Source: Escherichia phage vB_Eco_Mak. From it: a DNA stretch of 40,137 nucleotides. Within the stretch, counting starts at the first letter, position 1; the number at the start of each line of letters is the position of its first letter. The DNA lies in the sequence record OX001577, one strand, 5' to 3'. This document shows positions 1-40,137 of this stretch, piece after piece. The notes under the pieces are model-generated. The model was not told the origin of the DNA and ran no database searches. It was given only the letters and a program-made list of their open reading frames with translations. A program made the position numbers and the translations under genes.

Positions 1-111
1 GATAATCAAGCAACACTGCTGGTCTTGTTGTACTACGCAACTGCAAATGTAGTCGGGACGATGAAACTGCTATCCCTAAAGTTCTTTAACAATCTGGTAT
101 AAAGCGCATGT

Positions 112-166
112 GTTGAGTTAGAAAGTGATTGACTCAAGGCTGCTGAATGTAGTAGCCTTTATGACA
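112..166 (+). promoter_or_regulatory. RNase III-type processing hairpin upstream of RNAP gene
   Basis: TCTTTAACAATCTGGTA...GTTGAGTTAGAAAGTGATTGACTCAAGGCTGCTGAATGTAGTAGCCTTTATGA resembles the remembered T7 R0.3 site; stem AAGGCTGCT/AGTAGCCTT. Confidence 0.5.
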
Positions 167-2955: not shown

Positions 2956-3453
2956 ATGGTTGACTTTTCTGCTGTTGCTGCTGTTGGTTGTGGTGTTCTG
3001 AGCATTGTGTCTTGCGTCCTGATGTCTAAGCGAAGCATGGACAAGGAAGACATGAAGGTACTGCGCGGCCAAGTCCATGAGTTGAACCAAAAGCTGAAGG
3101 CTGAAAAAGAGTACAACGAGTACATGAAGAAAGACTACAAGTCACGCGAGATTGACTGGATGGGCAAGGTCATTGATGAACAACGGGTAGCCAAGGTGCT
3201 GCGTGACGAGTTAGGTAAAGCACGTAAGCAACTGAACGAGAAGTTACAACCTGCTACTGTGCAGTGTGACGGGGTATCTATCCGCTTGGACTCCAAGACT
3301 TCAATGAACTTCTCGGTAGGAAAAGTGATTAAAGAACTGTCACTCTCTGTGCTCGGTAACACTGTGACGGTCACTGTAGTTAAACACAATGGAATTGTTA
3401 AATCACATACATTCCAGAACGTGAGCTATAGTTACCGACAAGCGCAGCAATAA
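2956..3453 (+). CDS. hypothetical protein; N-terminal hydrophobic helix followed by a charged coiled-coil-like region
   Basis: 165-aa ORF with strong RBS (TAGGAGGATAAAATG). N-terminus AVAAVGCGVLSIVSCVLM is hydrophobic, followed by a K/E-rich segment. No family recognised. Confidence 0.65.
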   Translation: MVDFSAVAAVGCGVLSIVSCVLMSKRSMDKEDMKVLRGQVHELNQKLKAEKEYNEYMKKDYKSREIDWMGKVIDEQRVAKVLRDELGKARKQLNEKLQPATVQCDGVSIRLDSKTSMNFSVGKVIKELSLSVLGNTVTVTVVKHNGIVKSHTFQNVSYSYRQAQQ

Positions 3454-3509
3454 CAATAACTTAGGGTAGTCTGTAATGGGCTACCCTTTTGTCGTTTGTT
3501 AATGCCACT

Positions 3510-3533
3510 AATTAACACCCACTATTGGAATAT
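3510..3533 (+). promoter_or_regulatory. phage RNAP promoter (consensus copy)
   Basis: AATTAACACCCACTATTGGAAT; consensus core. Confidence 0.6.
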
Positions 3534-6603: not shown

Positions 6604-6610
6604 ACTCTAA

Positions 6611-6656
6611 GATAAAACTCAAGGTCATTCGCACAGAGTGGCCTTTATGATTTATC
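6611..6656 (+). promoter_or_regulatory. RNase III-type processing hairpin
   Basis: GATAAAACTCAAGGTCATTCGCACAGAGTGGCCTTTATGATTTATC, with outer stem GATAAA/TTTATC and the conserved core CAAGGTC...GTGGCCTTTATGA seen in T7 R sites. Confidence 0.6.
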
Positions 6657-6687
6657 TTTGTTCAATAAACAACCAATGAGGTAAACA

Positions 6688-9074: not shown

Positions 9075-9257
9075 ATGAAAGGTGCTATTATCTTCTACAT
9101 TGTGATGACTCTGCTGGCTTGTGCTGGTTGGATTACCAACATCGTCAATGTAATTACAGGCTTCCACCATGAGGTCGGTATCCTGTTTGTTGCTCAGTGC
9201 TTTGGCATCGCCGCCTTCCCTCTTGGGTCTGTGCTGGGCATCGCCTCTTGGTTCTAA
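9075..9257 (+). CDS. small hydrophobic (membrane) protein, hypothetical
   Basis: 60-aa ORF starting 1 nt after the primase stop. Two hydrophobic stretches (IIFYIVMTLLACAGWI, ILFVAQCFGIAAFPLGSVLGIASWF). Confidence 0.45.
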   Translation: MKGAIIFYIVMTLLACAGWITNIVNVITGFHHEVGILFVAQCFGIAAFPLGSVLGIASWF

Positions 9258-10389: not shown

Positions 10390-10838
10390 TGGCTAGGACT
10401 CCGGTACGAAAACACAATGTGAGTGCGTATCGGTCTGGCCTAGAGGAAAAGATTGCGGGTCAGCTTGAACAGGCTGGCCTGCCAGTACGCTTCGAGGAGG
10501 CATACATTAAGTATGTCATCCCTGAGTCAGACCATAAGTACACACCTGACTTCATCCTACCTAACGGTATCATCATTGAGTCAAAGGGTCTGTTCGATGT
10601 AGACGATAGGAAGAAACACCTGTTGCTCAAAGACCAGTATCCTGAGTTAGACATCCGGTTTGTGTTCTCTCGATCAGCCACTAAGCTGTACAAGGGAGCC
10701 AAGACCACGTATGCCGATTGGTGTGAACGTTATGGTTTTCAGTATGCTGACAAACTGATTCCGCCTAACTGGTTACGTGAATCCCATAAACCTATTCCAG
10801 AAGGAGTATTGATACCTAAAGGAGGTAAATCAAAATGA
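10389..10838 (+). CDS. endonuclease I / Holliday junction resolvase (T7 gp3-like)
   Basis: RSGLE.K, HKYTPDFILPNGIIIESKGL, DDRKKHLLL..QYPELDIRFVFS, KLYKG and LIP.NW match remembered T7 gp3. Confidence 0.9.
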   Translation: MARTPVRKHNVSAYRSGLEEKIAGQLEQAGLPVRFEEAYIKYVIPESDHKYTPDFILPNGIIIESKGLFDVDDRKKHLLLKDQYPELDIRFVFSRSATKLYKGAKTTYADWCERYGFQYADKLIPPNWLRESHKPIPEGVLIPKGGKSK

Positions 10839-11290
10839 AGACTAAATTTAAGAAACGTCCTGAGACTACCAAGATTGTAGTCCACTGTTCGGCTACCCGT
10901 GAGGACAAAGACTTTGGTGTGCGTGACATCCGCCTGTGGCATAAAGCTAAAGGTTGGCTGGATGTAGGCTACCACTACGTTATCAAGCGTGATGGTACTA
11001 TCGAAGAAGGTCGTCCTGATGATGTAATCGGTGCAGGTGCAGAGGGTCACAACACTGACTCAATCCACATCTGTCTGGTTGGTGGTCTGGACAAGGAGGG
11101 CAATACACTCGAAGGCTTCCACAATGCGTTCACTGACGCTCAGGAGGTGTCTCTGTTCCACCTGATTGCTGCAATGGAGGAGAAGTATCCTACCGTTCGC
11201 GTAGTGTGTGGACACCGCGACCTGCCTCGTGTAGCCAAAGCGTGTCCTTGCTTCGATGTCGTTAAGTGGCTGGAAGAAGTGGTAGTCTAA
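10835..11290 (+). CDS. N-acetylmuramoyl-L-alanine amidase / lysozyme (T7 gp3.5-like)
   Basis: VHCSAT, GVRDIR.WHK..GWLDVGYHY.IKRDGT, IHICLVGG, VVCGHRDLPRVAKACPCFD match remembered T7 gp3.5 zinc amidase. Confidence 0.9.
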   Translation: MKTKFKKRPETTKIVVHCSATREDKDFGVRDIRLWHKAKGWLDVGYHYVIKRDGTIEEGRPDDVIGAGAEGHNTDSIHICLVGGLDKEGNTLEGFHNAFTDAQEVSLFHLIAAMEEKYPTVRVVCGHRDLPRVAKACPCFDVVKWLEEVVV

Positions 11291-11338
11291 GTTACATACT
11301 CAAGGTCATCCGTAATGGGTGGCCTTTATGAATGTAAT
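11291..11338 (+). promoter_or_regulatory. RNase III-type processing hairpin
   Basis: GTTACATACTCAAGGTCATCCGTAATGGGTGGCCTTTATGAATGTAAT after the amidase gene. Confidence 0.55.
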
Positions 11339-11358
11339 TAACACCCACTATTGGTATT
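11336..11358 (+). promoter_or_regulatory. phage RNAP promoter
   Basis: AATTAACACCCACTATTGGTATT; start-site region differs (GGTA). Confidence 0.55.
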
Positions 11359-15917: not shown

Positions 15918-16162
15918 AACTCTGCGTTAACTGTAAGTATTGCCGAGTTGTTCCCTGTGGTGACATCTCTGCTGCCTACTACGAGTGTCTTGCTAAGGCA
16001 CCTGAGGTTAACGTTGTCACAGGTGACGAGAAGTATTCGTATTGTTCTGTCGTAAGGAACAAAGAGTGCAAAGGACAGTGGTATGTAAAGAAAGAACCTA
16101 TCCCTGAGCAAGTACAGGGTACGTTCAGAAAGATTATCACTTGGATTAGCAATAACTTTTAG
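15890..16162 (+). CDS. Cys-rich small protein, hypothetical (GTG start)
   Basis: 90-aa track ORF from GTG 15890 overlapping the exonuclease end. CVNCKYC...C...C pattern suggests a zinc-ribbon-like fold. Start uncertain. Confidence 0.4.
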   Translation: MDTKQRQDLKLCVNCKYCRVVPCGDISAAYYECLAKAPEVNVVTGDEKYSYCSVVRNKECKGQWYVKKEPIPEQVQGTFRKIITWISNNF

Positions 16163-16207
16163 TTATATCATCAAGGTCATTCTTAGGAGTGGCCTTCATT
16201 GGTATAA
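16163..16207 (+). promoter_or_regulatory. RNase III-type processing hairpin
   Basis: TTATATCATCAAGGTCATTCTTAGGAGTGGCCTTCATTGGTATAA. Confidence 0.55.
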
Positions 16208-17442: not shown

Positions 17443-19047
17443 ATGGCTGAAGTTAAACGTGAAGGTCTAGCTGCTGAAGGTGCAGCCAAGACATATGAGC
17501 GTTTGAAGAATGACCGTAACGACTACGTGACCCGTGCAGAGGACTGTGCCAAGTACACCATTCCTAGTCTGTTCCCTAAGGATTCAGACGATGGTGGTAC
17601 GAGTTATACGACTCCTTGGCAGTCCATTGGTGCTCGCGGTCTGAACAACATTAGCGCAAAGGTAAACCTAGCGTTGTTCCCTGTAGGTGCGCCTTTCTTC
17701 AAACTGAATATCTCTGAGCTAGAGCTGAAGCAAATCATCACCGATTCGTCTGCACTTCAAGATGTAGCACAAGGTCTGTCGATGGTTGAGCGTATTGTTC
17801 TTAGCTACATGGAGGCCAACGGTTATCGAACTTCTCTGGTTGAAGCTATTCGTCAACTCTTTGTTAGCGGTAACGTGCTGCTGTACGTGACCAATCCTGA
17901 CGAGATGATGGATGGTGAAATGGCTGGTCTGAAGGTCTACCGATTGCCGTCCTATGTAGTTGAACGAGATGGATTCGATAACGTCTTGCAGATTGTAGCA
18001 GTCGATAAGATTGCCCGCGTAGCGTTACCTGAAGACATCCAATCTGCTATCGCTGAGGAGACTACCGATGAAAACCTGACAGAAGAAGTCGAGATTTACA
18101 CTCACATCTACCGTAACTCTGAGACACAAATGTTCACAGTTTATCAGGAGATTGAGGGTGAAATCGTAGCTGGCTCTGAAGGTGAGTACCCATTGGATGC
18201 TTGCCCTTGGATTCCTGTACGTCTTATCAAGATGCCTAACGAGGACTATGGACGTTCGTTCGTAGAAGAATACCTCGGTGACTTGAAGTCATTGGAGGCT
18301 CTGTACGAGGCTATGATTAAGATGTCCATGATTGCCGCTAAGGTTCTGTTCATGGTTAACCCTAACGGACAGACTCAGGTTCGCCGTATGGCTAAGGCCA
18401 ACACAGGTGACTTTGTAGCTGGTCGTAAGGAAGACATCGGAGTATTCCAGTTAGAGAAACAACAGGACTTCAACACAGCGAAGATTGTAGCTGACACCAT
18501 TGAGGCTCGCTTGTCGTATGCCTTCATGTTGAACTCTGCGGTACAACGCGGTGGTGACCGTGTTACTGCTGAGGAGATTCGCTATGTGGCTGGTGAATTG
18601 GAGGACACTCTGGGTGGTATCTATTCGTTACTGTCCCAAGAGTTACAGATGCCTTTAGTCCGCATCCTGTTGCGTGTACTGGAAGCTACCTCGAAGATTC
18701 CTAACTTGCCTAAGGAAGCTGTTGAACCTGCTGTTGCTACTGGTCTGGAAGCTCTGGGTCGTGGTCATGACCTTGACAAGCTGAATATGTTCGTTAACGG
18801 TATTGCTACTCTGTCTGCAATCCAAGACGAAGACCTGAACATGCGTGACATTAAGATGCGCTACGCTAACTCTCTGGGTATGGACACTGCTGGTATGATT
18901 CTGACTCCTGAGGAGAAACAACAGAAGATGGCTGAAATGGCTCAACAACAGGCCATGATGCAAGGTGGTGCCGCTGCGGGTGGCGTAATGGGTCAAGCTG
19001 GTGGTCAAGCAATGGCTGAACAAGCTGCTCAGATGATGCAACAATAA
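17443..19047 (+). CDS. portal / head-tail connector protein (T7 gp8-like)
   Basis: 534 aa, the size and position of T7 gp8, with a Gln/Ala/Met-rich C-terminal tail (MAEMAQQQAMMQGG...QMMQQ). Sits immediately before the scaffold and capsid genes. Confidence 0.9.
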   Translation: MAEVKREGLAAEGAAKTYERLKNDRNDYVTRAEDCAKYTIPSLFPKDSDDGGTSYTTPWQSIGARGLNNISAKVNLALFPVGAPFFKLNISELELKQIITDSSALQDVAQGLSMVERIVLSYMEANGYRTSLVEAIRQLFVSGNVLLYVTNPDEMMDGEMAGLKVYRLPSYVVERDGFDNVLQIVAVDKIARVALPEDIQSAIAEETTDENLTEEVEIYTHIYRNSETQMFTVYQEIEGEIVAGSEGEYPLDACPWIPVRLIKMPNEDYGRSFVEEYLGDLKSLEALYEAMIKMSMIAAKVLFMVNPNGQTQVRRMAKANTGDFVAGRKEDIGVFQLEKQQDFNTAKIVADTIEARLSYAFMLNSAVQRGGDRVTAEEIRYVAGELEDTLGGIYSLLSQELQMPLVRILLRVLEATSKIPNLPKEAVEPAVATGLEALGRGHDLDKLNMFVNGIATLSAIQDEDLNMRDIKMRYANSLGMDTAGMILTPEEKQQKMAEMAQQQAMMQGGAAAGGVMGQAGGQAMAEQAAQMMQQ

Positions 19048-19070
19048 TTAACACCCACTATTGGAGAGAT
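19046..19070 (+). promoter_or_regulatory. phage RNAP late promoter (before scaffold gene)
   Basis: AATTAACACCCACTATTGGAGAGAT overlapping the portal stop; followed by transcript 5' hairpin GGAGAGA...TCTCTCC (19063..19087). Confidence 0.75.
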
Positions 19071-31200: not shown

Positions 31201-32601
31201 CTGACCCGATTGATTACTGGCCGCCGTAGAGCTGAAGACCCTGCGTCTGCCTTGGTGACTGCAATTCGTGGTCTGCAAGATTGGTCGTTCCTGTCTAACT
31301 CTGCGCAGATGTGGGTGAACAACCTAACTGAAGTATCAGGGTGGGCAACTAACCGGATGATGTTTGTGGCTCGTAATGGTGTCAAAGGTCTGAACCAACT
31401 GTTGAACCCAGAAACGAAGTTCTCTAAGGCTGACCTGAAGGACTTTGCTGATGGTCTGTTCGGCTATGACCTGAACACTTCGTTGTTACCTTCCTACCGG
31501 AACATCAAAGACCAACTGATTAAGACAGGTGCTAGCGAACGTGCTGCTTCAATCGCTGCTGGTATTCGTACAAGTGGTGCATTGGCTGCAAGTCATAAGT
31601 ACAACATCTACACTAAGCTGTTGAACAAGACTACTGAAGGTCTGGTCAATATGGCACGTAGTGGTGTACTGAGTGACATCACACACGAAGCATTCGGTGG
31701 TGTGCGTATCAATAAGGCTATCTTGAGGAATGCCTCAATCACTGAGAAACAGTATGCAGGTGTCTTGGATATGTTACGTCAGCACATCAAAGTGCAAGAC
31801 GGTAAGTATGTCCCTGATGTGCAGGCCATTAAGCGTGACGTTAGGTCTAATGACCTGTGGCGCTTAGCGGACTACATTGCGTCTGACTCTGTGATGCGAA
31901 CAAACAAGGTGGGCTTCAACTATGTGGCTAAACCTAATGCCTTTATGAACCTTGCGTTGCAGTTCAAGTCCTTCATGTTGAAGGGTCTGAATGCTCGCAC
32001 TGTTCGTATGTGGCATGAGTCATTCCAAGGTAAGTCTATTGACAACGCTATGCGAGTTATCGTTGGTGCTGGTATCACTGGTGCTATCTGGGCTGCACAG
32101 GCTCACTACCGTTCTATTGGTATTCCACCTGAGCAACGCCAAGAGTACCTTGAGCGTATGTTAGACCCTAGCATGGTAGCTTATCAGGCATTCTCACGTA
32201 GTGCTGAGATGGGTACTGTACTTGGTGGTGTAAACCTCGCGTTGACTCCATTCACAGACAGTGACCTGTTCCGTTTAGGTCGTTCTACCGTAGACCCTGT
32301 ACGGGCTATGAAAGGACGCTCACCTTTACGTGCAGACGTTCTGAATCAACAAGCTGTCGGTGAACAACTTGGTGACGCTGTGTACAACACAATGCCAGCC
32401 TTGAAGTTCATTGGTACTGCTGGTGTCCTTCCGGCTAACGCTGTGCAATGGGCACTTGCCGACCACGGCTATCAGTCTGACATGCAGGCTCGTACCTTCT
32501 TTGAGAACTTAGCGTCTGCTGCTCCTAATGCTCCTGAGATTCAGTGGTTAATCGGGATGATGGCACAAGATGCAGGTGCTTCAGGTAAGGGTATGTGGTA
32601 A
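28276..32601 (+). CDS. internal virion protein D with N-terminal lytic transglycosylase domain (T7 gp16-like)
   Basis: 1441 aa. N-terminal SLT-like motifs (GMIESGLKADASSGVAKGLFQFTKTTWDA, AYL) parallel the remembered T7 gp16 N-terminus (AWTESRF...GPLGMMQFTKAT). Internal matches include DLVRSPTG, GIENN.F...RN.FD, DLR.FDM, NGDIAIH.STGKTTK.LKD, QFKSF..K.LN, EYLERMLDP.M.A. Confidence 0.9.
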   Translation: MSYSTDTSSTSMYQRLKALSGDTHGLITTAGNELGLPEGQALKVGMIESGLKADASSGVAKGLFQFTKTTWDAMKQKYGAEYGIDPTASRTDPVANTILGVAYLKENATNYQSTFGKDPELVDLYMGHFLGQSGRNQFLKAMEQNPNAPAYAVVGKRSVANNKDVFFKKDGTARTLNEVYQMYSNKLSATELEQDMKTDRLKMDIQDELLWKTLGRSQDGSANATLSTGTAPSTPNFDVSLSDSKPQSIADALSSYGLQKPEDTVEKDERSFFDGAWEAAKAEIRLSPIGRDLREKYIQSGAPVEWDSAAAALRESFSGLSQSEMFTGNINPLEPMDITPEMWNTILSNGVDKKWMEYIKMSANPQDLVNRVQMAQEMQRADQARQAAATGGQLVGGIAGAFGDPLTFATGGTSAGGSLMTRLFVAGTEAAAGNAANEFSLSQETRGGVETNIAAAALGGFAGGVALRGLGEAFTNMSAAGRMRARQESIDAGVPDVTARPDVEVPEGKTWVEKPDEAGAVVDELGNTHSATSFGNPKVMEAVEANKGIELGGLNSISYDLLRSESTETRTIAQDLVRSPTGIKGGGSGVTRMTAEDYLGRLEGQDNLIYTQAMKAREKAYEHSMFDLQGGRNAREAMERQVVEAIESGDFSRLTPEMKEYADLLTTNFTEKHYAASNIAALSGNADAPNVLTSTIDPKRYVPAIYEEGKVIDAKMRFDPEGKYEGLYNEIQANWTAQWKNNHNGVRERMKALFDEDNSKFAEDLRAKLTKDKELDVVPEGKQKSARMEKQEGIQAKISKAEELRQKNAVKLQKARKPETRAKYEGLVQKYDKQLSELKTELEMTKPMDEDKLLEIYAQRYIERKSYGIAKNGEFTHSSSLEDVDLSDSLVGIENNNFTQERNIFDMAYESIAKDGEPFSLNDLRHFDMMNAMSMYNKRMNGDIAIHASTGKTTKDLKDAIVALPEGRDRTNLDQLTRLITGRRRAEDPASALVTAIRGLQDWSFLSNSAQMWVNNLTEVSGWATNRMMFVARNGVKGLNQLLNPETKFSKADLKDFADGLFGYDLNTSLLPSYRNIKDQLIKTGASERAASIAAGIRTSGALAASHKYNIYTKLLNKTTEGLVNMARSGVLSDITHEAFGGVRINKAILRNASITEKQYAGVLDMLRQHIKVQDGKYVPDVQAIKRDVRSNDLWRLADYIASDSVMRTNKVGFNYVAKPNAFMNLALQFKSFMLKGLNARTVRMWHESFQGKSIDNAMRVIVGAGITGAIWAAQAHYRSIGIPPEQRQEYLERMLDPSMVAYQAFSRSAEMGTVLGGVNLALTPFTDSDLFRLGRSTVDPVRAMKGRSPLRADVLNQQAVGEQLGDAVYNTMPALKFIGTAGVLPANAVQWALADHGYQSDMQARTFFENLASAAPNAPEIQWLIGMMAQDAGASGKGMW

Positions 32602-32624
32602 TTAACACCCACTATTGGAGAGGG
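32600..32624 (+). promoter_or_regulatory. phage RNAP late promoter (before tail fiber)
   Basis: AATTAACACCCACTATTGGAGAGGG overlapping the gp16 stop; followed by hairpin AGGGAGGC-TAAAT-GTCTCCCT (32621..32641). Confidence 0.75.
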
Positions 32625-32677
32625 AGGCTAAATGTCTCCCTACTTAATGTCTATAACAATTAGTGTAAGGAGGATAA

Positions 32678-34546
32678 ATGGCTAACGCTACTCCATTCTA
32701 TACACGGTCGCCTAAGACTATTGTCGTTTATCCGATTAATGGTCAGACAGAGTTCACTATTCCCTTTGAGTTTCTAGCTCGTAAGTTCGTAGTGGTAACA
32801 CTGTTGGGTGTAGACCGTTTACCGTTGGTACTCAATACCGACTATCGTTTTGTGTCTGTGAATCGTATTCAGTTACTCTCTCCGGTTCCCGCTGGGTATC
32901 CTAACATTGAGTTACGCCGATTGACTTCCGCTACTGACCGACTGGTCGATTTTCACGATGGGTCTATCCTACGTGCTTACGACTTAAACTTGGCTCAGAT
33001 TCAGACCATGCACGTTGCTGAAGAAGCTCGTGACCTGACTGCGGACAACATTGGTGTAAACGATAACGGCGACCTTGATGCTCGTAACCGTAAGATTGTC
33101 AACTTGGCTAACGGTACAGAGAACAACGATGCTGTGAACTTGGGTCAGTTACGTCAGTTCGATACATCCACTGCTAACAATGCTGACCGTGCTGAGGCTG
33201 CAAAGAATCGTGCTGTACAAGCTGAGACTAACACTGCGCGTGACTCTGCGTCTGCCGCTGTGAATGCTACCAAGGCTGTAGCGTCTGCTGGTACTGCTGT
33301 GCAGGCTGCAAGTGATGCCAATCGGTCTTACGATAAGATTGTCCCTTTGGAACAGTCCACTGTGGCTAACGCTCAGGTAGCAACTCAACAGGCTCAACGT
33401 TCTCAGAGCGAAGCAGACCGAGCTAAGAGTGAGGCTGACAAGCTGGCTAACATTAACCAGTTCGCACAGACCATTGAACGTGTAGACGGTACTGCTCCGG
33501 TATTTAAAAGCAACCTAGCGATTGGAGGTAATTCCGCATCTACTCATGCTTACATTAGTATTAACTCAAAGGCATCCGATGAAAGTGGTGTAACACGAAA
33601 AGGGTTTATTGGGGTTGCTGGTGAAAACGAGAAACACATTACCGTTGGTTCAGATGTTAGTGCTGTTCGTTTACAAACACCTAGTGGTTCTGTTCAAGTT
33701 GGTGGTAATCTAGTACATTCTGCTGCCAACAGACTATTGGTATCTGCACAGGATGATAATGACTGCTATATCGACATTGCTGCCAGAAACTCTGAGAATA
33801 AGTTTCGTCGTATTTATTCAGGTGGCGGTAGGTTAGCAGTGACAGAGAACGTGTCAACAACTGGTGAGTGGTTGCGAGATATTATCAGCACATACCAATA
33901 CCCTAGTGACCCAAGACGCGGTATCTTTGAGGTTGGTAACGCCAATATGCGCTCAAAGGCGTGGGGTTCCACTTGGGCGGATAGTTTAACAACTTGGAAC
34001 TCTGGTAACTTTGTTGATGCAAACTATGCTGCTGGGTCTGCAATTTCTGCTGTGACCCTTAGTGTCCCTTCTCGACCTAGTGTAGGGTGGCCGACTAACA
34101 TTGGATTTGGTACTTTGATGGACGGTCGTGCCGGTCTTATGAATCCTTACATCTGGGCGGCTGGTATGGATAATGCAGAGTTACGAGGTTGGGAGTTCCA
34201 ATCTGACGGTCGTATTCGCTCATTTAACCAGTTAGGTAGCTTAGGTATTGTGTCGTTTATGGGAGACTGGGCACCTCGTAATGCCCCTATTGGTGCTGCT
34301 GGGTACAGTGGAGGACTTCAGATTCGTTACGGTGTTGTCTATGCTGCACAGGCAGAGGCATGGAACTGGCACGCTTACTCTGAACCTTTCCCTACTGCTA
34401 CCCTCTCTGTTGCATTGACACAGCGTAACCCGCCACGTTTCGACAATACTTGGAACCCGAAGATTGGCTCTGTGAACAACACAGGTTTTAACTTTGCTGG
34501 TGGTGGTCAGGAACGTGACTTCTATTACATCGCTGTAGGTTACTAA
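32678..34546 (+). CDS. tail fiber protein (T7 gp17-like N-terminal domain, divergent C-terminal domain)
   Basis: N-terminal third is highly similar to remembered T7 gp17 (FEFLARKFVVVTLLGVDR, DYRF, IELRR.TS.TDRLVDF.DGSILRAYDLN.AQIQTMHVAEEARDLT.D.IGVN..G.LDAR.R.IVNLANG). After about residue 250 the similarity is lost. Confidence 0.9.
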   Translation: MANATPFYTRSPKTIVVYPINGQTEFTIPFEFLARKFVVVTLLGVDRLPLVLNTDYRFVSVNRIQLLSPVPAGYPNIELRRLTSATDRLVDFHDGSILRAYDLNLAQIQTMHVAEEARDLTADNIGVNDNGDLDARNRKIVNLANGTENNDAVNLGQLRQFDTSTANNADRAEAAKNRAVQAETNTARDSASAAVNATKAVASAGTAVQAASDANRSYDKIVPLEQSTVANAQVATQQAQRSQSEADRAKSEADKLANINQFAQTIERVDGTAPVFKSNLAIGGNSASTHAYISINSKASDESGVTRKGFIGVAGENEKHITVGSDVSAVRLQTPSGSVQVGGNLVHSAANRLLVSAQDDNDCYIDIAARNSENKFRRIYSGGGRLAVTENVSTTGEWLRDIISTYQYPSDPRRGIFEVGNANMRSKAWGSTWADSLTTWNSGNFVDANYAAGSAISAVTLSVPSRPSVGWPTNIGFGTLMDGRAGLMNPYIWAAGMDNAELRGWEFQSDGRIRSFNQLGSLGIVSFMGDWAPRNAPIGAAGYSGGLQIRYGVVYAAQAEAWNWHAYSEPFPTATLSVALTQRNPPRFDNTWNPKIGSVNNTGFNFAGGGQERDFYYIAVGY

Positions 34547-34555
34547 GGAGGAACA

Positions 34556-34900
34556 ATGTACTTAAACTATTCACAAGCTATGCAGGCTTTGTTGGATGGT
34601 TATGATGTCATTCGGGAGAGCACAGGACGTGTTCTCTCTGTTGATAAGACCAACAACAATATGTTTGCCTACTGGCCTGAACTTGGTGAAGGTCTGCGGG
34701 ATACACCAATGAGTCAAGAAGACTTAGAGGCAACCGACTGGAAAATCTATGACCATAATGGTAACGATGCTCCTGAGGACTCCTCTCAGTTCGACATCAA
34801 GGTTCCTGTGGACACCAAGCAACAACAAATTGATGAACTAACTGATAAGTTAGCAAATCTTGAACAGAAACTCATGGAGGTGCTAAATGCCAAGTCCTAA
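34556..34900 (+). CDS. small protein, possibly DUF2829-like (tentative, from recalled motif pattern)
   Basis: 114-aa ORF with RBS AAGGAGG. N-terminal ..AMQALLDGYDV.R...G and later W.....PMSQEDLEATDWKIY resemble the F.EAL.ALK.G..V.R.GW ... W.PSQ.DLLAEDW.I pattern I recall for DUF2829, plus a C-terminal coiled-coil tail. Family assignment is from memory, not a search. Confidence 0.55.
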   Translation: MYLNYSQAMQALLDGYDVIRESTGRVLSVDKTNNNMFAYWPELGEGLRDTPMSQEDLEATDWKIYDHNGNDAPEDSSQFDIKVPVDTKQQQIDELTDKLANLEQKLMEVLNAKS

Positions 34901-35972
34901 AGCTCAAGACACTGTTGAGTTCGGATGGTCTGGTACTGATGGTTATATTCGTAATGGAGGTAAGTACAACCTCCTTACGTCTAAGCCTAAGATGACCTTT
35001 GCGTATGACACAGTGATGTACTCAACTGACCCTGCCGTAGAGGATGTTCGGACAGTTGGACTGCAAGTGTTCCCACTTCAGCCTAACGAAATGTCTGAAC
35101 TGAATGCCTACGCTGTGGCTCACTCAATCAATGACCCGTGGAATCCGGCAGACCCTGCTGACCCTGTTGGTAAACCTGAGCATCCTGTCACTAACATGAT
35201 TTACTCGTTTGACACTGCGTCTGGCCGATTGGTTCCAGTCAATGTGTATGCCCAAGATGGTGACTTCTGGGTAGGTGACCAAGCGTCAACCAATGAGAAA
35301 CGACTGGCTGTGTTACGTCAGGTTGGTAGTGGGTTTACTGCTGCCTTGGTTCACATTACCGATGCTGGTCATGTTCAGGTAACTCGAACAGATAATGCAG
35401 GTAATATGGTGTCTCTGGACATTGGAGATACAGATATTGGCATCACCACGAGTGCTGGCCGTAAGCGGTTTGTTACCGAGGATGAACTGCCTCCTCCGCC
35501 TCCACCTCCTGCTGCACCTGTTGTCCAGTCTATTGACTTGGTAGATACCGTGAAACTTGCAGGTGCAAACTACGTGTCTAACACTGCTGTGCTAACTCAA
35601 ACGTTGATGCAGGAGAATGGTACTGGCGACTACGTTGTGAAGCATCGCCTTGTCAGCTACGGCACGTTCAACTTCCCAGCTACATCATCAAACACTAAGT
35701 CAACCACATTGTCTTTGTCTGGGATGTTCTCTGGCAATCAATATGTGTTCTGTGACGAGATGACAATCAGTGGTTGGACTGTATCTGGTGGTTCTAACCC
35801 AACACAGCACAGTTATCGTATTGACCAGACCAAGCGACAGACAAACCAAATTGTTGTGCAAGCAAATGGTACGACTAACGGTGCTCTGACTGTCGCTGCC
35901 ACTATTGTGATTGAGTTTAATCTGCCTAACCAAGACTACGGCTTAGGTGTCCCATTCCCTGAATTTGCGTAA
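34887..35972 (+). CDS. hypothetical two-domain protein with polyproline hinge
   Basis: 361-aa ORF with RBS GGAGG 6 nt upstream. An N-terminal domain of about 190 aa, a PPPPPPPAAP linker, and a C-terminal domain of about 160 aa rich in Thr/Ser/Gly/Asn. No family recognised. Confidence 0.65.
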   Translation: MPSPKAQDTVEFGWSGTDGYIRNGGKYNLLTSKPKMTFAYDTVMYSTDPAVEDVRTVGLQVFPLQPNEMSELNAYAVAHSINDPWNPADPADPVGKPEHPVTNMIYSFDTASGRLVPVNVYAQDGDFWVGDQASTNEKRLAVLRQVGSGFTAALVHITDAGHVQVTRTDNAGNMVSLDIGDTDIGITTSAGRKRFVTEDELPPPPPPPAAPVVQSIDLVDTVKLAGANYVSNTAVLTQTLMQENGTGDYVVKHRLVSYGTFNFPATSSNTKSTTLSLSGMFSGNQYVFCDEMTISGWTVSGGSNPTQHSYRIDQTKRQTNQIVVQANGTTNGALTVAATIVIEFNLPNQDYGLGVPFPEFA

Positions 35973-35983
35973 GGAGGTAAATC

Positions 35984-36124
35984 GTGAAGGTTAAAAAGCG
36001 TATTGTTGCCGCTGTGGTTCTGGCATCCCTGATTGTTCTGGGTGCTATCTTTGAAACCGACCTGACCAAGATGGCTGACGCTCTGGTGTCCGTCTCTTGC
36101 TCTATCGTTGAGTGTACACAATGA
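35984..36124 (+). CDS. possible 46-aa single-pass membrane protein (GTG start)
   Basis: Read by hand: GTG 35984 with AAGGAGG 6 nt upstream; VKVKKRIVAAVVLASLIVLGAIFETDLTKMADALVSVSCSIVECTQ. Its stop overlaps the holin start (ATGA). Not in the track (under 60 aa). Confidence 0.35.
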   Translation: MKVKKRIVAAVVLASLIVLGAIFETDLTKMADALVSVSCSIVECTQ

Positions 36125-36330
36125 GTCTTGAACTTAACTTTGGAGATGCTGTAATCCGCTCTGCCCCTGTTGGTGGGGCGGTTGCAACAGACTTAGTAGC
36201 AAGGTTCATGGGTCTAACACTTCACGAGTGGTTCTATGTAGCGGCCATAGGATACACTTGCATTCAAGGGTGGGCAGTAATCTATAAGACCCTCAAGAAG
36301 TACAAGGAGGATAATGTAAATGACACCTAA
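36121..36330 (+). CDS. class II holin (T7 gp17.5-like)
   Basis: MSLELNFGDAVIRSAPVGG.....LVARF.GL.L.EWFYVAAIGYT matches remembered T7 gp17.5 (MLSLDFNNELIKAAPIVGTGVADVSARLFFGLSLNEWFYVAAIAYT). ATG 36121; track ORF starts at GTG 36112. Confidence 0.7.
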   Translation: MSLELNFGDAVIRSAPVGGAVATDLVARFMGLTLHEWFYVAAIGYTCIQGWAVIYKTLKKYKEDNVNDT

Positions 36331-36565
36331 AGAGTTTGAGCTATTACTTCAGGAACTAGACTACGAAGCTGCAAAGCTGATGTTACAAGACCTGAAGAAC
36401 GACGAGAAGCGTAACCCTCAGTTGTTTAACGCTGTGGTTCGCATGTTGGAACGCCACAAGCATACAATTGCAAAGGTTGTTCCTGATGAAAGCATTCTGA
36501 CCAGTCTTGCGTCTGAACTACCAGACCTGACTGAAGATGAACAATATGGAGGTATCTTACAATGA
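36320..36565 (+). CDS. terminase small subunit (T7 gp18-like)
   Basis: KLMLQDL...E.RNPQLFNAVVRMLERHK..IAK..PD..IL resembles remembered T7 gp18 (QRMLADLSDHERRSPQLYNAINKLLDRHKFQIGKLQPDVHIL). RBS AAGGAGG. Confidence 0.8.
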   Translation: MTPKEFELLLQELDYEAAKLMLQDLKNDEKRNPQLFNAVVRMLERHKHTIAKVVPDESILTSLASELPDLTEDEQYGGILQ

Positions 36566-36705
36566 ACCGTATCGTAACTTGGGTTCTGTTGGTCTGTGTG
36601 TGGACTGCTGTTCTGCTGAGTCTCAGTGGTTGCACCATTATGATTGACAGTCCAAACTCACAACCAATGGTTGAATGTGGTGACTTGTTAGGTATCACCC
36701 TGTAA
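36562..36705 (+). CDS. small lipoprotein, candidate outer-membrane spanin component
   Basis: Read by hand: ATG 36562 (GGAGG upstream) to TAA 36703..36705, 47 aa. Signal peptide with lipobox LSGC (MNRIVTWVLLVCVWTAVLLSLSGC...). Sits in the T7 18.5/18.7 position. Confidence 0.45.
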   Translation: MNRIVTWVLLVCVWTAVLLSLSGCTIMIDSPNSQPMVECGDLLGITL

Positions 36706-36753
36706 GTTATATACTCAAGGTCATTCGCGTAGAGTGGCCTTTATGAATATAAC
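36706..36753 (+). promoter_or_regulatory. RNase III-type processing hairpin
   Basis: GTTATATACTCAAGGTCATTCGCGTAGAGTGGCCTTTATGAATATAAC with perfect outer stem GTTATAT/ATATAAC. Confidence 0.6.
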
Positions 36754-36775
36754 TAGCAACTAAGGAGGTTAAATT

Positions 36776-37021
36776 ATGACCGAAAGTGATAACGCTACGC
36801 AAAATCTGAGTAGAAGTCCTTATGGATTATGGTCAGAAATTGAAGGATTGCGTAGTCTGGCAGACACTTTGATAGGTGGAGAGATGCCTATGGAGGTGTA
36901 CAACGCTCTGACTCCTGAGCAAAAGAAGATTACCCTTAACGTAACCAAGGCGTGTTCACAATGTGCTACTGCCTTAGAGAAGTTTCAAGAGGAGGTACTA
37001 AATGTCGGCTGCCCAAAGTAA
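36776..37021 (+). CDS. hypothetical protein
   Basis: 81-aa ORF with RBS AAGGAGG, right after an RNase III-type hairpin; overlaps the terminase large subunit start. No transmembrane segment. Confidence 0.5.
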
Positions 37022-38774
37022 CAAAGACAAACTCATTCTAGCTCGCCTGAAGGCTGACTTTGTGGCGTTCCTCTTTGTCCTGTGGAAAGCGTTGAACCTT
37101 CCTAAGCCTACTCGGTGTCAAATCGACATGGCTAGAAAGCTCGCTGCTGGCTCTGAGAGACGTTTTATCCTTCAGGCATTTCGTGGTATTGGTAAGTCCT
37201 TTATCACCTGTGCGTTCGTTGTATGGAAGCTCTGGAACAATCCTCAGTTGAAGTTCATGATTGTGTCTGCTTCAAAGGAACGTGCTGACGCTAACTCCAT
37301 CTTTATCAAGCGTATCATTGACCTGTTACCGTTCTTGCATGAGCTGAAACCTAAGCCTAACCAACGTGACTCTGTAATCAGCTTTGATGTTGGTCTAGCG
37401 AAACCTGACCACTCTCCTTCAGTTAAGTCTGTTGGTATCACTGGTCAGTTGACTGGTAGCCGTGCTGACATCCTGATTGCGGACGACGTTGAGGTTCCTA
37501 ACAACAGTTCCACACAGGCTGCTCGTGACCGCCTAGGTGAGCTTGTAAAGGAGTTTGACGCTATCTTGAAGCCTGAGGGTACTATCATCTACCTTGGTAC
37601 TCCACAATGCGAAATGACGCTGTACAGAGAGCTTGAGAACCGTGGTTACACTACTACCATCTGGCCTGCTCGTTATCCTAAAGACCGCAAAGACCTTGAG
37701 TCGTACGGCACACGCTTAGCTCCTATGCTTCTGGAAGACCTTGAGGAAAACCCTGAGGCCATGTGGTGGACACCTACTGACCCTGTACGCTTCGATGATG
37801 AAGACCTGCGGGAACGTGAGTTGTCATATGGTAAGGCTGGCTTTGCGTTACAGTTCATGTTGAACCCTAACCTGAGTGATGCCGAGAAGTATCCACTCAA
37901 GTGTCGTGACTTCATTGTGGCGGCTGTAGGTGATGACTTTGCGCCTTTGACCTACCAATGGCTACCTAACCACGAGAACCTAGCTGGGAACGTCCCTGCG
38001 GTGGGTTTGAAGGGAGACACATACCACTACTACCACGTAGCAGATAAGCGCACTGCGGCCTTCTCAGGCAAGATTCTGGCTATTGACCCTAGTGGTCGTG
38101 GTAAGGATGAAACAGGGTATGCTGTCTTGTACTTCCTCAATGGCTACATCTATGTGATGGCTATGGGTGGCTTCCGAGGTGGTTACGATGATGAAACCCT
38201 TGAGAAGCTAGCTAAGGTTGCCAAGCGATGGAAAGTCAATGAGGTTCTGGTGGAAGGTAACTTTGGTGACGGTATGTACCTCAAAGTGTTCTCTCCGGTA
38301 CTGGCTCGTATTCATCCTTGTACGTTGACTGAGACTAAGAGTAAAGGTCAGAAGGAACAACGTATTGCTGATACCATCGAACCTGTCTTAGGTGCTCACC
38401 GTATGGTTATCACTGAGGATGCAATTCGTCACGACTATCAGACTGCTCGTAATATTGATGGTCAGCATGACATTAAGTATTGCTGCATGTATCAACTTAC
38501 ACGTCTGACTCGTGAACGCGGCGCATTGGCTCACGATGACCGTCTGGACGCATTGGCAATCGGGGTGGCATATTTCCTTGAGTCAATCGAGAAAGACGCT
38601 CAGAAAGGCGCTGAGGAGCTTACAGAGGAATGGTTGGAAGACCAACTCAATGCTGAACGCATCAGTGACCAACTGAGTGACTACATTGTGCATCAAGGCG
38701 ATGTGGAAATCCGAGTAGGTTACCAAAATGAGGACGCATATTGGGTCACTAACCTAGTTGGGTTTGACCGGTGA
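37002..38774 (+). CDS. terminase large subunit (T7 gp19-like)
   Basis: Long near-identical stretches to remembered T7 gp19: [151 protein letters not shown]. Confidence 0.95.
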
Positions 38775-38830
38775 TATGTTAACAAAGATGGTTAAATGTT
38801 AACGAATTGAGTAGATTTTTGACCATTTTG

Positions 38831-38853
38831 AATTAACACCCACTATTGGAGTA
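38831..38853 (+). promoter_or_regulatory. phage RNAP promoter near the right genome end
   Basis: AATTAACACCCACTATTGGAGTA, 57 nt after the terminase stop. Confidence 0.6.
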
Positions 38854-38948
38854 TACGACAATAAGAGGGAACATTAAGTCTATAGACACTAGGAGAGTCG
38901 ACCTTAGAGTAGGCACTCAGTCTGACCTTAGTGTTCCCTCTTTGTCTT

Positions 38949-38990
38949 GGGAGTATTCTTCATTATTAGAATAACTCCCTTCTCTTTGTG
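38949..38990 (+). terminator. candidate terminator hairpin downstream of terminase
   Basis: GGGAGTATTCT-TCATTATT-AGAATAACTCCC followed by a T-rich run (TTCTCTTT). Confidence 0.4.
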
Positions 38991-39119
38991 TAGAGACACT
39001 GAGGCGTATCTTGGAGGTGATTGTATGAGGAAGACTACCCTTATGGTCACCTACTATGTGGTTAAAGTTACCTTCTTGGTTTACCTGTTGGTAACCCATG
39101 CTGGCGCTTAATCTCGGTA

Positions 39120-40010: not shown

Positions 40011-40137
40011 GATAATCAAGCAACACTGCTGGTCTTGTTGTACTACGCAACTGCAAATGTAGTCGGGACGATGAAACTGCTATCCCTAAAGTTCTTTAAC
40101 AATCTGGTATAAAGCGCATGTGTTGAGTTAGAAAGTG
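40011..40137. repeat. exact duplicate of window positions 1..127 (probable assembly wrap-around of a circularly permuted sequence)
   Basis: Positions 40011..40137 are identical to 1..127 by direct comparison. The duplication lies between the gp0.6-like gene and the RNAP gene, not where T7-type terminal repeats reside. Confidence 0.8.

Follow-up and report, generated by a model that had tools for sequence, protein, structure and literature searches.

The window analyzed here, a stretch of 40,137 nucleotides (nt) from Escherichia phage vB_Eco_Mak (sequence record OX001577), encodes next to its holin and small terminase genes two very small proteins, a 46-residue membrane protein and a 47-residue lipoprotein. 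We propose, with a probability that we put at about 60%, that they are the inner-membrane (i-spanin) and outer-membrane (o-spanin) partners in a two-component spanin of miniature size and VP4/SP6 type, and that the gene of the former has been displaced to a place upstream of the holin gene. The cassette is most likely a split, extra-small form of an already catalogued mini-spanin type and not a categorically new system. The proposal is built on gene structure, homology and topology rules; what goes beyond these we infer, and spanin function is a prediction. The elements of the cassette, numbered on the whole window, are the following.

35971..35978, + strand: Shine-Dalgarno sequence AAGGAGGT, 5 nt before the GTG start of the 46-residue open reading frame (ORF)
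35984..36124, + strand: 46-residue membrane ORF with a GTG start, candidate mini i-spanin (VP4/SP6-family homology, transmembrane domain, tail pattern; PHROG 4712, E=1.5e-6; SpaninDB entry for the N4/ICP3 homolog)
36121..36330, + strand: gp17.5-type holin (PF10746, E=7e-11; phrog_920, E=7e-18)
36320..36565, + strand: small terminase subunit terS, gp18 (PF11123, E=5e-11; phrog_1351, E=3e-24)
36562..36705, + strand: 47-residue lipoprotein precursor, candidate o-spanin (lipobox LSG/C, 24-residue acidic mature peptide)

When the sequence was reread, every feature that the initial annotation had ascribed to this cassette was found in its place, including the single-pass 46-residue ORF with its strong ribosome-binding site and its coupling to the holin gene, and the lipoprotein with lipobox LSGC where T7 has genes 18.5 and 18.7. 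The TGA of the 46-residue ORF overlaps the ATG of the holin gene in an ATGA (36121-36124), the holin and terS genes overlap by 11 nt, and the terS stop and the lipoprotein ATG, which has GGAGGT 8 nt upstream, share a second ATGA (36562-36565); by these overlaps the four genes form one translationally coupled chain. The holin is a clear member of its family (42.1 bits on PF10746, gathering score 25.4). terS is no lysis gene, yet together with the holin gene it fills the 437 nt that part the two spanin-candidate genes. In gene layout and in size the cassette is indeed atypical, as had been noted.

The 46-residue protein (MKVKKRIVAAVVLASLIVLGAIFETDLTKMADALVSVSCSIVECTQ) contains a single hydrophobic segment (residues 7-23), preceded by the flank MKVKKR (+4) and followed by an acidic tail of 23 residues (-3). 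A rule-based check, of the kind that the initial annotation had suggested for signal peptides and transmembrane domains (TMDs), finds one TMD with an N-in/C-out charge bias in this protein and the lipobox LSG/C in the lipoprotein. The former is thus predicted, by rules and not by a dedicated topology predictor, to be a type II (N-in/C-out) inner-membrane protein with one N-terminal TMD. Its tail carries a hydrophobic 3-4 repeat (L27-M30-L34-V37-I41-C44; hydrophobic moment, p=0.016) that is kept in 8 of 11 family members. AlphaFold2 monomer models of both small proteins are of low confidence (mean predicted local distance difference test score, pLDDT, about 67) and were used for secondary structure only; here they give a helix at 2-22, a break at 23-26 and a second helix at 27-44, with a pLDDT of only about 60 in the latter. 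Where i-spanins carry coiled-coil helices in the periplasm, the model gives only one helix of 18 residues, at low confidence, with the a/d pattern L-M-L-V-I-C. Invariant residues across the family include K4, K5, R6, G20, A21, D26, L27, C39 and C44, and the C-x4-C arrangement itself is invariant, so that the i-spanin candidate has the periplasmic cysteines expected for disulfides. Together, the heptad-like repeat and the invariant C-x4-C suggest a short homo-oligomeric helix stapled by disulfides.

In this region the window is 99.9% identical to vB_Eco_Bam (OW991346.2, 40137 bp) and 100% identical to Escherichia phage vB_Eco_Titus (OX090892.1), both classified as T7-like Studiervirinae of the Autographiviridae; we call "Bam group" the lineage made up of the window, Bam, Titus and their metagenomic kin L008, L009 and L021. 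The closest relatives are Aeromonas phages (T7-Ah, PZL-Ah8/Ah152, PT2, phiA014S and JELG-KS1) and the Vibrio Chatterjeevirus group (N4, VP4, VP3 and ICP3), in agreement with the placement of Aeromonas and Vibrio phages as nearest kin in PMC10974468. tblastn located homologs of the 46-residue protein, 57-59% identical, in four Aeromonas phages (E=3e-5 to 6e-4, the former for T7-Ah); a search with the Aeromonas sequence extended the family to Vibrio phages, and BLASTP against VN4_44 of N4 gave 49% identity (E=6e-9). Since the 23-residue tails alone score above 5000 shuffles (p<=4e-4 against T7-Ah, N4 and the metagenomic protein P0007), this homology is more than a matter of TMD composition. The homologs in VP4, N4, ICP3 and T7-Ah make up a 47-residue "putative i-spanin" family whose gene directly follows gene 18 and precedes the lipoprotein gene. 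Spanin families have been defined by at least 40% identity over at least 40% of the length or periplasmic domain (PMC6139136); with the VP4 family, the tail-only shuffle gives p=2e-4 and periplasmic identity is about 39-43%, which is borderline for this rule.

The family is rare: 5.8e9 proteins contain 7 clusters of it, and when 1.84e9 representative proteins were searched with a profile, only about 9 small proteins emerged. One of these (P0046; library-wide E=7.5e-4) is an SP6-like 49-mer, and a hidden Markov model (HMM) made without any SP6-like sequence matches gp47 of phage K1-5 (E=1.9e-7). The SP6-like homolog is present in 144 phage records. PHROG 4712, which from the geometry of the match we take to be the SP6-like 49-mer family, also matches the 46-residue protein (E=1.5e-6) and is labelled "holin", as is the K1-5 protein in RefSeq. 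A holin makes the lethal membrane lesion by which the endolysin is released or activated, and a phage normally has a single gene of this kind. The label is probably a misnomer, because Bam and the SP6-like phage LL11 each carry a separate holin; no holin model of Pfam or NCBIfam is similar to the 46-residue protein.

Gene order in the relatives bears directly on the pairing. The initial annotation had regarded the 46-residue protein as "extra" and the lipoprotein as having no obvious Rz partner. These two oddities are most likely one: the 46-residue protein is the homolog of a putative mini i-spanin encoded directly upstream of the lipoprotein gene in N4, VP4, ICP3, T7-Ah, PT2 and the metagenomic contigs L006 and L007. 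Indeed, in N4, T7-Ah, PT2, L006, L007 and L010/L011 the gene of the small transmembrane (TM) protein comes directly after terS and directly before that of the small lipoprotein, and in the Studiervirinae relatives the two fill the slot of T7 18.5/18.7. The order is 17, holin, 18, TM, lipoprotein, 19 in L006, and 17, holin, X, 18, TM, lipoprotein, 19 in N4 and L007; T7-Ah and PT2 are arranged as N4, T7-Ah having an additional 37-residue TM ORF. In SP6-like K1-5 and LL11, the order is terL, two small ORFs, endolysin, TM, lipoprotein. Bam, Titus, L008, L009 and L021 share the order 17, 114-residue ORF, X, TM, holin, 18, lipoprotein, orf81, 19, so that the split arrangement is conserved in the three metagenomic genomes. 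From these arrangements, the putative i-spanin gene appears to have left its place behind gene 18 in the Bam lineage and now directly precedes the holin gene. Spanin genes are typically embedded, overlapped or close, as they are in the relatives; those of the window lie 437 nt apart. Because separated spanin gene pairs up to about 1 kb apart, such as that of B40-8, are on record (PMC6139136), the split is unusual and has precedent. A third tiny ORF with a single TMD (33-37 residues) follows the lipoprotein gene in Aeromonas relatives (L017 37782-37895 in T7-Ah, L014 13530-13631 in phiA014S, and L011 468-578) and is absent from Bam.

The lipoprotein precursor reads MNRIVTWVLLVCVWTAVLLSLSG/CTIMIDSPNSQPMVECGDLLGITL, the slash marking the predicted cleavage at the lipobox LSG/C (residues 21-24). 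It has a signal peptide (residues 1-23) with a hydrophobic h-region, Thr at +2, and an acidic mature part of 24 residues (-3) with one Cys. It thus presents the signal peptide and lipobox of an o-spanin, and lipidation is predicted. The AlphaFold2 monomer shows a confident signal helix (3-23) and a low-confidence, coil-like mature part with only a short helix (42-46). In a scan of the whole genome on both strands, this was the only credible lipobox ORF; the sole pattern match on the minus strand lies antisense inside the primase gene and is not credible. A profile search with the lipoprotein gathers 30 clusters, and in three further Bam-type variants (P0008, P0009 and P0015) the mature peptide, CTIM[I/V]DSPNSQPMVECGDLLGITL, is the same as in the window or differs by one I/V change, the signal peptides being different. 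Between host genera the mature peptide differs. Full-length BLAST against the Aeromonas types looked significant, but mature-only HMMs and shuffles assigned the similarity mostly to signal peptide and lipobox, and we discarded it as a sign of cross-host homology. Cross-group HMMs of the mature domains do not separate Bam from decoys. Common to the lipoproteins across groups is a short motif, Cys-Thr followed by three hydrophobic residues, a polar residue and Ser (CT-hydrophobic-x-S). Under the 40%/40% rule, the Bam o-spanin candidate would be a new, separate family.

Selection on the two genes was examined against the diverged metagenomic relative L008 (synonymous divergence, dS, of 0.41 in terL), the counts being small. 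The i-spanin tail shows 3 synonymous and 0 nonsynonymous changes, and the mature o-spanin 4 and 1 (ratio of nonsynonymous to synonymous rates, dN/dS, 0.06); the o-spanin signal peptide is at 58% amino acid identity with a dN/dS of 0.42. In the 46-residue protein, constraint is strongest on the periplasmic tail, which carries the C-x4-C, and weaker on the TMD. Within the limits of such small counts, this pattern fits purifying selection on both predicted periplasmic parts, and because both ORFs are conserved in L008 with synonymous-biased change, they are more than chance ORFs.

As the initial annotation had stated, the lipoprotein gene is neither overlapped nor flanked by a canonical Rz-like gene: six-frame translation of 36330-37002 lists no ORF with an N-terminal TMD, the only ORFs of at least 60 residues being terS, a soluble 81-residue ORF and an antisense 90-residue ORF free of TMDs. 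Furthermore, no cassette ORF matched the Rz, Rz1 or T7 18.5/18.7 families (Pfam E<=1, PHROGs E<=0.1, NCBIfam E<=1). The spanin system, if such it is, is non-canonical, as had been surmised, with a candidate mini pair and no Rz-like gene. Elsewhere in the window, directly after the RNA polymerase gene, an orphan ORF of 165 residues (2956-3453) encodes a protein with a TMD at its N-terminus, then a long charged helical stretch, and a C-terminus rich in beta structure. A 174-residue protein of phiA014S (L014 21290-21814) has the same architecture and position, and no detectable sequence similarity to it. In L019 and L020 a 197-residue ORF overlaps the start of the lipoprotein gene; as a candidate for a full-size i-spanin it was rejected, since its product is a polytopic membrane protein with a weak match to the YhhQ (7-deazaguanine transporter) model.

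Three further elements of the window bear on expression of the cassette and on the lysis pathway.

32595..32622, + strand: promoter-like site, the last before the cassette (family D1, consensus AATTAACACCCACTATTGGAGA; next copy at 38826)
36703..36758, + strand: conserved hairpin directly 3' of the lipoprotein gene (families D8 and D13; dG -22.4 kcal/mol, z=-3.8; conserved in L008)
10835..11290, + strand: gp3.5-type N-acetylmuramoyl-L-alanine amidase, the endolysin (PF01510, E=5.5e-16; phrog_822, E=7e-65)

The phage RNA polymerase promoter-like motif of family D1 has 17 copies, all intergenic and on the + strand (e.g., 3505-3532, 19041-19068, 32595-32622 and 38826-38853). Because no such site lies between 32595 and 38826, genes 17 through terL, both small genes included, would be on one late transcript; judging from promoter positions, the cassette gene chain is most likely part of this late gene-17 transcript. 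Scans of 32400-39000 for sigma-70 promoters and intrinsic terminators showed no enrichment above shuffles. The hairpin belongs to a family of four related copies (6607-6662, 11288-11343, 16156-16182 and 36703-36758) that contain ACTCAAGGTCAT and GTGGCCTTTATGA and resemble T7 RNase III sites. The copy at 36703, for which Rfam holds no family, is probably an RNase III-type processing site; in T7, the R18.5 site occupies the equivalent position. A minus-strand coding sequence of the GenBank Bam record, BAMTRB_045, runs across this hairpin and is probably spurious. The amidase gene lies 25 kb away from the cassette, as in T7, and encodes the endolysin of the same lysis pathway.

Our working model is as follows. 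Both genes would be expressed late from the gene-17 transcript, the coupled chain running from i-spanin through holin and terS to o-spanin. The 46-residue protein would insert N-in/C-out in the inner membrane and expose a 23-residue amphipathic, heptad-patterned helix ending in C-x4-C, which probably forms a disulfide-stapled homo-oligomer. The lipoprotein would be lipidated at Cys24 and cleaved; with Thr at +2 and no Lol-avoidance signal, its destination would be the inner leaflet of the outer membrane, where it would sit as a largely unstructured lipopeptide of 24 residues. After holin triggering and degradation of the murein by the gp3.5 amidase, the short periplasmic parts may meet and destabilize the outer membrane or fuse it with the inner membrane, which would complete lysis. 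The combined periplasmic length, 23 + 24 or about 47 residues, is shorter than that of any pair that we found listed in SpaninDB. The helical tail reaches about 3 nm, and 47 residues fully extended with no overlap would cover about 16 nm; the periplasm of E. coli is about 20 nm wide. Because 47 residues fall short of this width, the pair, unlike Rz/Rz1, probably engages only once the wall is gone. A bolder claim is that about 47 periplasmic residues constitute a true outer-membrane-disrupting machine, either a contact fusogen or disruptor that assembles after murein removal, or the 24-residue lipopeptide active by itself, as the partner-less relatives of the phiA014S lineage suggest; this we consider doubtful.

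Several observations weigh against a miniature spanin. At 23 + 24 residues, the two parts are too short to span an intact periplasm; the periplasmic domains of two-component spanins total 62-300 residues in the text of PMC6139136, so that the 47 residues found here lie below the stated minimum of 62, and the SpaninDB curators themselves remarked "Too small?" and "Too short" on mini pairs. In the literature, we found no experimental test of the mini-spanin family, only the 2018 catalogue and genome reports. The two candidate genes are not adjacent in the window genome. With regard to the lipoprotein, similarity of the mature Bam peptide to the Aeromonas types is only marginal (p=0.01-0.14), and homology with the VP4-family o-spanin was not detected, since the Vibrio-type mature HMM does not retrieve Bam above decoys and the pairwise shuffle gives p=0.97. 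The Cys of the mature part is not conserved outside the Bam group. The equivalence of the Bam lipoprotein with those of the relatives is therefore mainly positional, and rests on position, lipobox and a short motif. Finally, a sister lineage keeps the lipoprotein after terS and has no mini-TM homolog (on either strand of the whole phiA014S genome, in the sequenced JELG-KS1 locus, or, for L019 and L020, within 17-20 kb of the lipoprotein gene), which means that the lipoprotein can persist without a mini-TM partner and may work alone or with another one. The lipoprotein genes of this lineage (L014 13366-13530 in phiA014S, L015 2435-2599 in JELG-KS1, L019 10001-10168 and L020 10001-10159) encode a long and unusually conserved N-terminal hydrophobic region (…VALQII.C.TII.P…LSGC), and in L019 and L020 the gene of the 197-residue polytopic membrane protein overlaps their start.

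The position of the 46-residue gene could also mean that its product is a holin-associated factor (an antiholin, a modulator of the timing of the gp17.5-type holin, or a second holin) and that the lipoprotein does something else. The gene indeed stands immediately before the holin gene in Bam and is translationally coupled to it, PHROG 4712 and K1-5 RefSeq gp47 bear the label "holin", and the protein is too short for a classical i-spanin. In every other lineage, however, the gene adjoins the lipoprotein gene and not the holin gene, from which it is parted in N4 and T7-Ah by terS and often by one more gene; moreover, LL11 has a holin of its own in the 17.5 slot, between the tail-fibre and terS genes, and the laboratory that curates these proteins calls the 49-mer "putative I-spanin". 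Selection bears most strongly on the periplasmic C-x4-C tail and not on the TMD, and similarity to holin models of Pfam and NCBIfam is lacking. We thus find a holin-associated role quite unlikely, and the antiholin idea of the initial annotation has no specific support, its sole prop being the label of a family whose member LL11 has a separate holin. Another possibility is that the lipoprotein, with or without the 46-residue protein, serves superinfection exclusion or receptor masking in the manner of T5 Llp or phi80 Cor and has no role in lysis. Such a function would suit a small lipoprotein of the outer membrane whose gene lies two to four genes downstream of the tail-fibre module; it would also suit a mature peptide that varies by host genus, as expected if it tracked a host surface component, and the persistence of the lipoprotein in a lineage that lacks the mini-TM protein. 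Set against this, in all relatives, irrespective of tail fibre, the gene sits between terS and terL in the slot of T7 18.5/18.7, it is placed on the late transcript with the holin when exclusion functions are usually expressed early, and the lipoprotein resembles no annotated family, which leaves exclusion unlikely.

That the lipoprotein disrupts the outer membrane by itself, or together with some partner other than a type II membrane protein, and that the 46-residue protein is a dispensable enhancer, is suggested by the phiA014S/JELG-KS1/L019/L020 lineage, which has the lipoprotein and no mini-TM protein, with the conserved hydrophobic region and, in L019 and L020, the overlapping polytopic gene described above. 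The signal peptide of the Bam group is free to change (58% amino acid identity, dN/dS 0.42), whereas the 46-residue tail is invariant. In addition, the pairing of a TM protein with a lipoprotein recurs in two Autographiviridae subfamilies with lipoproteins that are dissimilar (Bam versus K1-5 mature parts, p=0.97), an argument for a TM protein that depends on some lipoprotein of the outer membrane as its partner, and we judge action of the lipoprotein alone improbable. A last candidate is an unlinked i-spanin of canonical size, the 165-residue ORF at 2956-3453. Its outline is Rz-like, with a TMD and about 140 further residues that include a coiled-coil-like stretch, and phiA014S, which lacks the mini-TM protein, has the 174-residue protein of similar architecture after its RNA polymerase gene. 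The ORF is an orphan, however, and follows gene 1 directly, 33 kb off in the early/middle region. Neither N4 nor T7-Ah, both of which encode the lipoprotein, has it, nor does any other phage record, and its product resembles neither the phiA014S protein nor any family. With D3 ahead of the TMD and K/R behind it, the charges favour an N-out/C-in orientation, in which the helical domain and the C-terminus would lie in the cytoplasm. This candidate is very unlikely.

Other features of the window are reported here for completeness. Between the hairpin and terL, orf81 (36776-37021) encodes an acidic soluble protein of 81 residues and runs 20 nt into the start of terL; it evolves fast (59% amino acid identity to L008, dN/dS 0.47), and homologs occur only in the Bam group. 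The 114-residue ORF after the tail-fibre gene (34556-34900) has a weak, sub-threshold match to the Tad2-like model (Thoeris anti-defence 2 / DUF2829; PF11195, E=0.002, 18.9 bits versus a gathering score of 25). Directly 3' of the primase/helicase gene, a 60-residue ORF with two predicted TMDs (9075-9257) matches phrog_6006, of unknown function (E=2e-7). The ends of the window (1-127 and 40011-40137) are identical over 127 bp, and the 40010 bp of Titus equal 40137 - 127; the identity reflects either a direct terminal repeat or an overlap from circular assembly. For a T7-like genome the left end is unusual, in that the record begins with the RNA polymerase gene at 192. Relative to the window, coordinates of the Bam record OW991346.2 are offset by 80 near the cassette and by 206 near 3 kb, so that the window is not strictly collinear with version.2.

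Models of spanin function describe complexes that span the periplasm and fuse the inner membrane with the outer one, and the mini pairs catalogued in 2018 carried with them the question of whether they are too small. The phage type studied here is convenient for asking how small a spanin can be, as it infects E. coli, has the shortest pair found and keeps the two genes naturally unlinked, which makes single-gene manipulation easy. If true, a machine of about 47 residues or an active lipopeptide would set a new lower size limit and represent a mechanistic variant of spanin action, in an E. coli phage amenable to genetics. A practical point concerns annotation, since the GenBank records of this clade are inconsistent on both small genes. 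The Bam record omits the 46-residue gene and gives the lipoprotein only 38 residues from an internal TTG start, whereas Titus annotates both in full; the lipoprotein is labelled "putative i-spanin" in phiA014S and JELG-KS1, and ORF48 of JELG-KS1, which has no lipobox, is labelled "putative o-spanin".

Among known systems, the VP4 family (VP4, VP3, N4 and ICP3) and the K1-5/K1E/SP6 pairs are listed in SpaninDB as separated two-component spanins with the remark "Too small?" (Kongari et al. 2018, PMC6139136). The candidate pair of the window shares with the VP4 family the length of the i-spanin, a K/R-rich N-terminal flank, the TMD, a "DL" hinge, a heptad-like tail and the C-x4-C end, as well as a T7-like backbone, a gp17.5-type holin and a small lipoprotein encoded between terS and terL; both systems are predicted only. 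It differs in that the VP4/N4/ICP3 genes abut (-1 to -13 nt) whereas those of the window are 437 nt apart, in that the mature Vibrio o-spanin has 49 residues with an acidic tail whereas that of Bam has 24 and no significant similarity to it, and in that the host of Bam is E. coli. With K1-5, K1E and SP6 (Molineuxvirinae; i-spanin of 49 residues, o-spanin of 69) it has in common a distant homology of the TM protein, the C-x4-C C-terminus, about 21 periplasmic residues and, there, a lipoprotein gene next in order; their pair, however, follows the endolysin gene downstream of terL with 77 nt between the two genes, and their lipoprotein is unrelated and twice as long (50 mature residues).

The likeness to T7 gp18.5/gp18.7 and lambda Rz/Rz1 lies in the slot within the T7 gene order, in the combination of a type II inner-membrane protein with an outer-membrane lipoprotein, in the periplasmic cysteines and, for Rz1, in a mature o-spanin that is short and apparently unstructured. 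There is, however, no sequence similarity, the window genes are neither embedded nor overlapping, and the pair cannot pre-span the periplasm, the periplasmic domain of its i-spanin having 23 residues. In T7 and lambda, this domain has about 100-130 residues. Combined lengths far below that of Rz/Rz1 are also found in the short SpaninDB pairs of F108 (25+27 residues, 52 in total) and PhiP27 (32+30), predictions that the curators held doubtful (PMC6139136); these are unrelated sequences from other phage types, and the total of about 47 in Bam is lower still. Finally, the disruptin gp28 of phiKT, a soluble cationic amphipathic peptide that disrupts the outer membrane in a spanin-less manner (bioRxiv 10.1101/515445), is likewise a small late protein of a coliphage podovirus in the place of canonical spanins, but the mature Bam lipoprotein (-3) and the tail of the TM protein (-3) are acidic, and both proteins would be membrane anchored.

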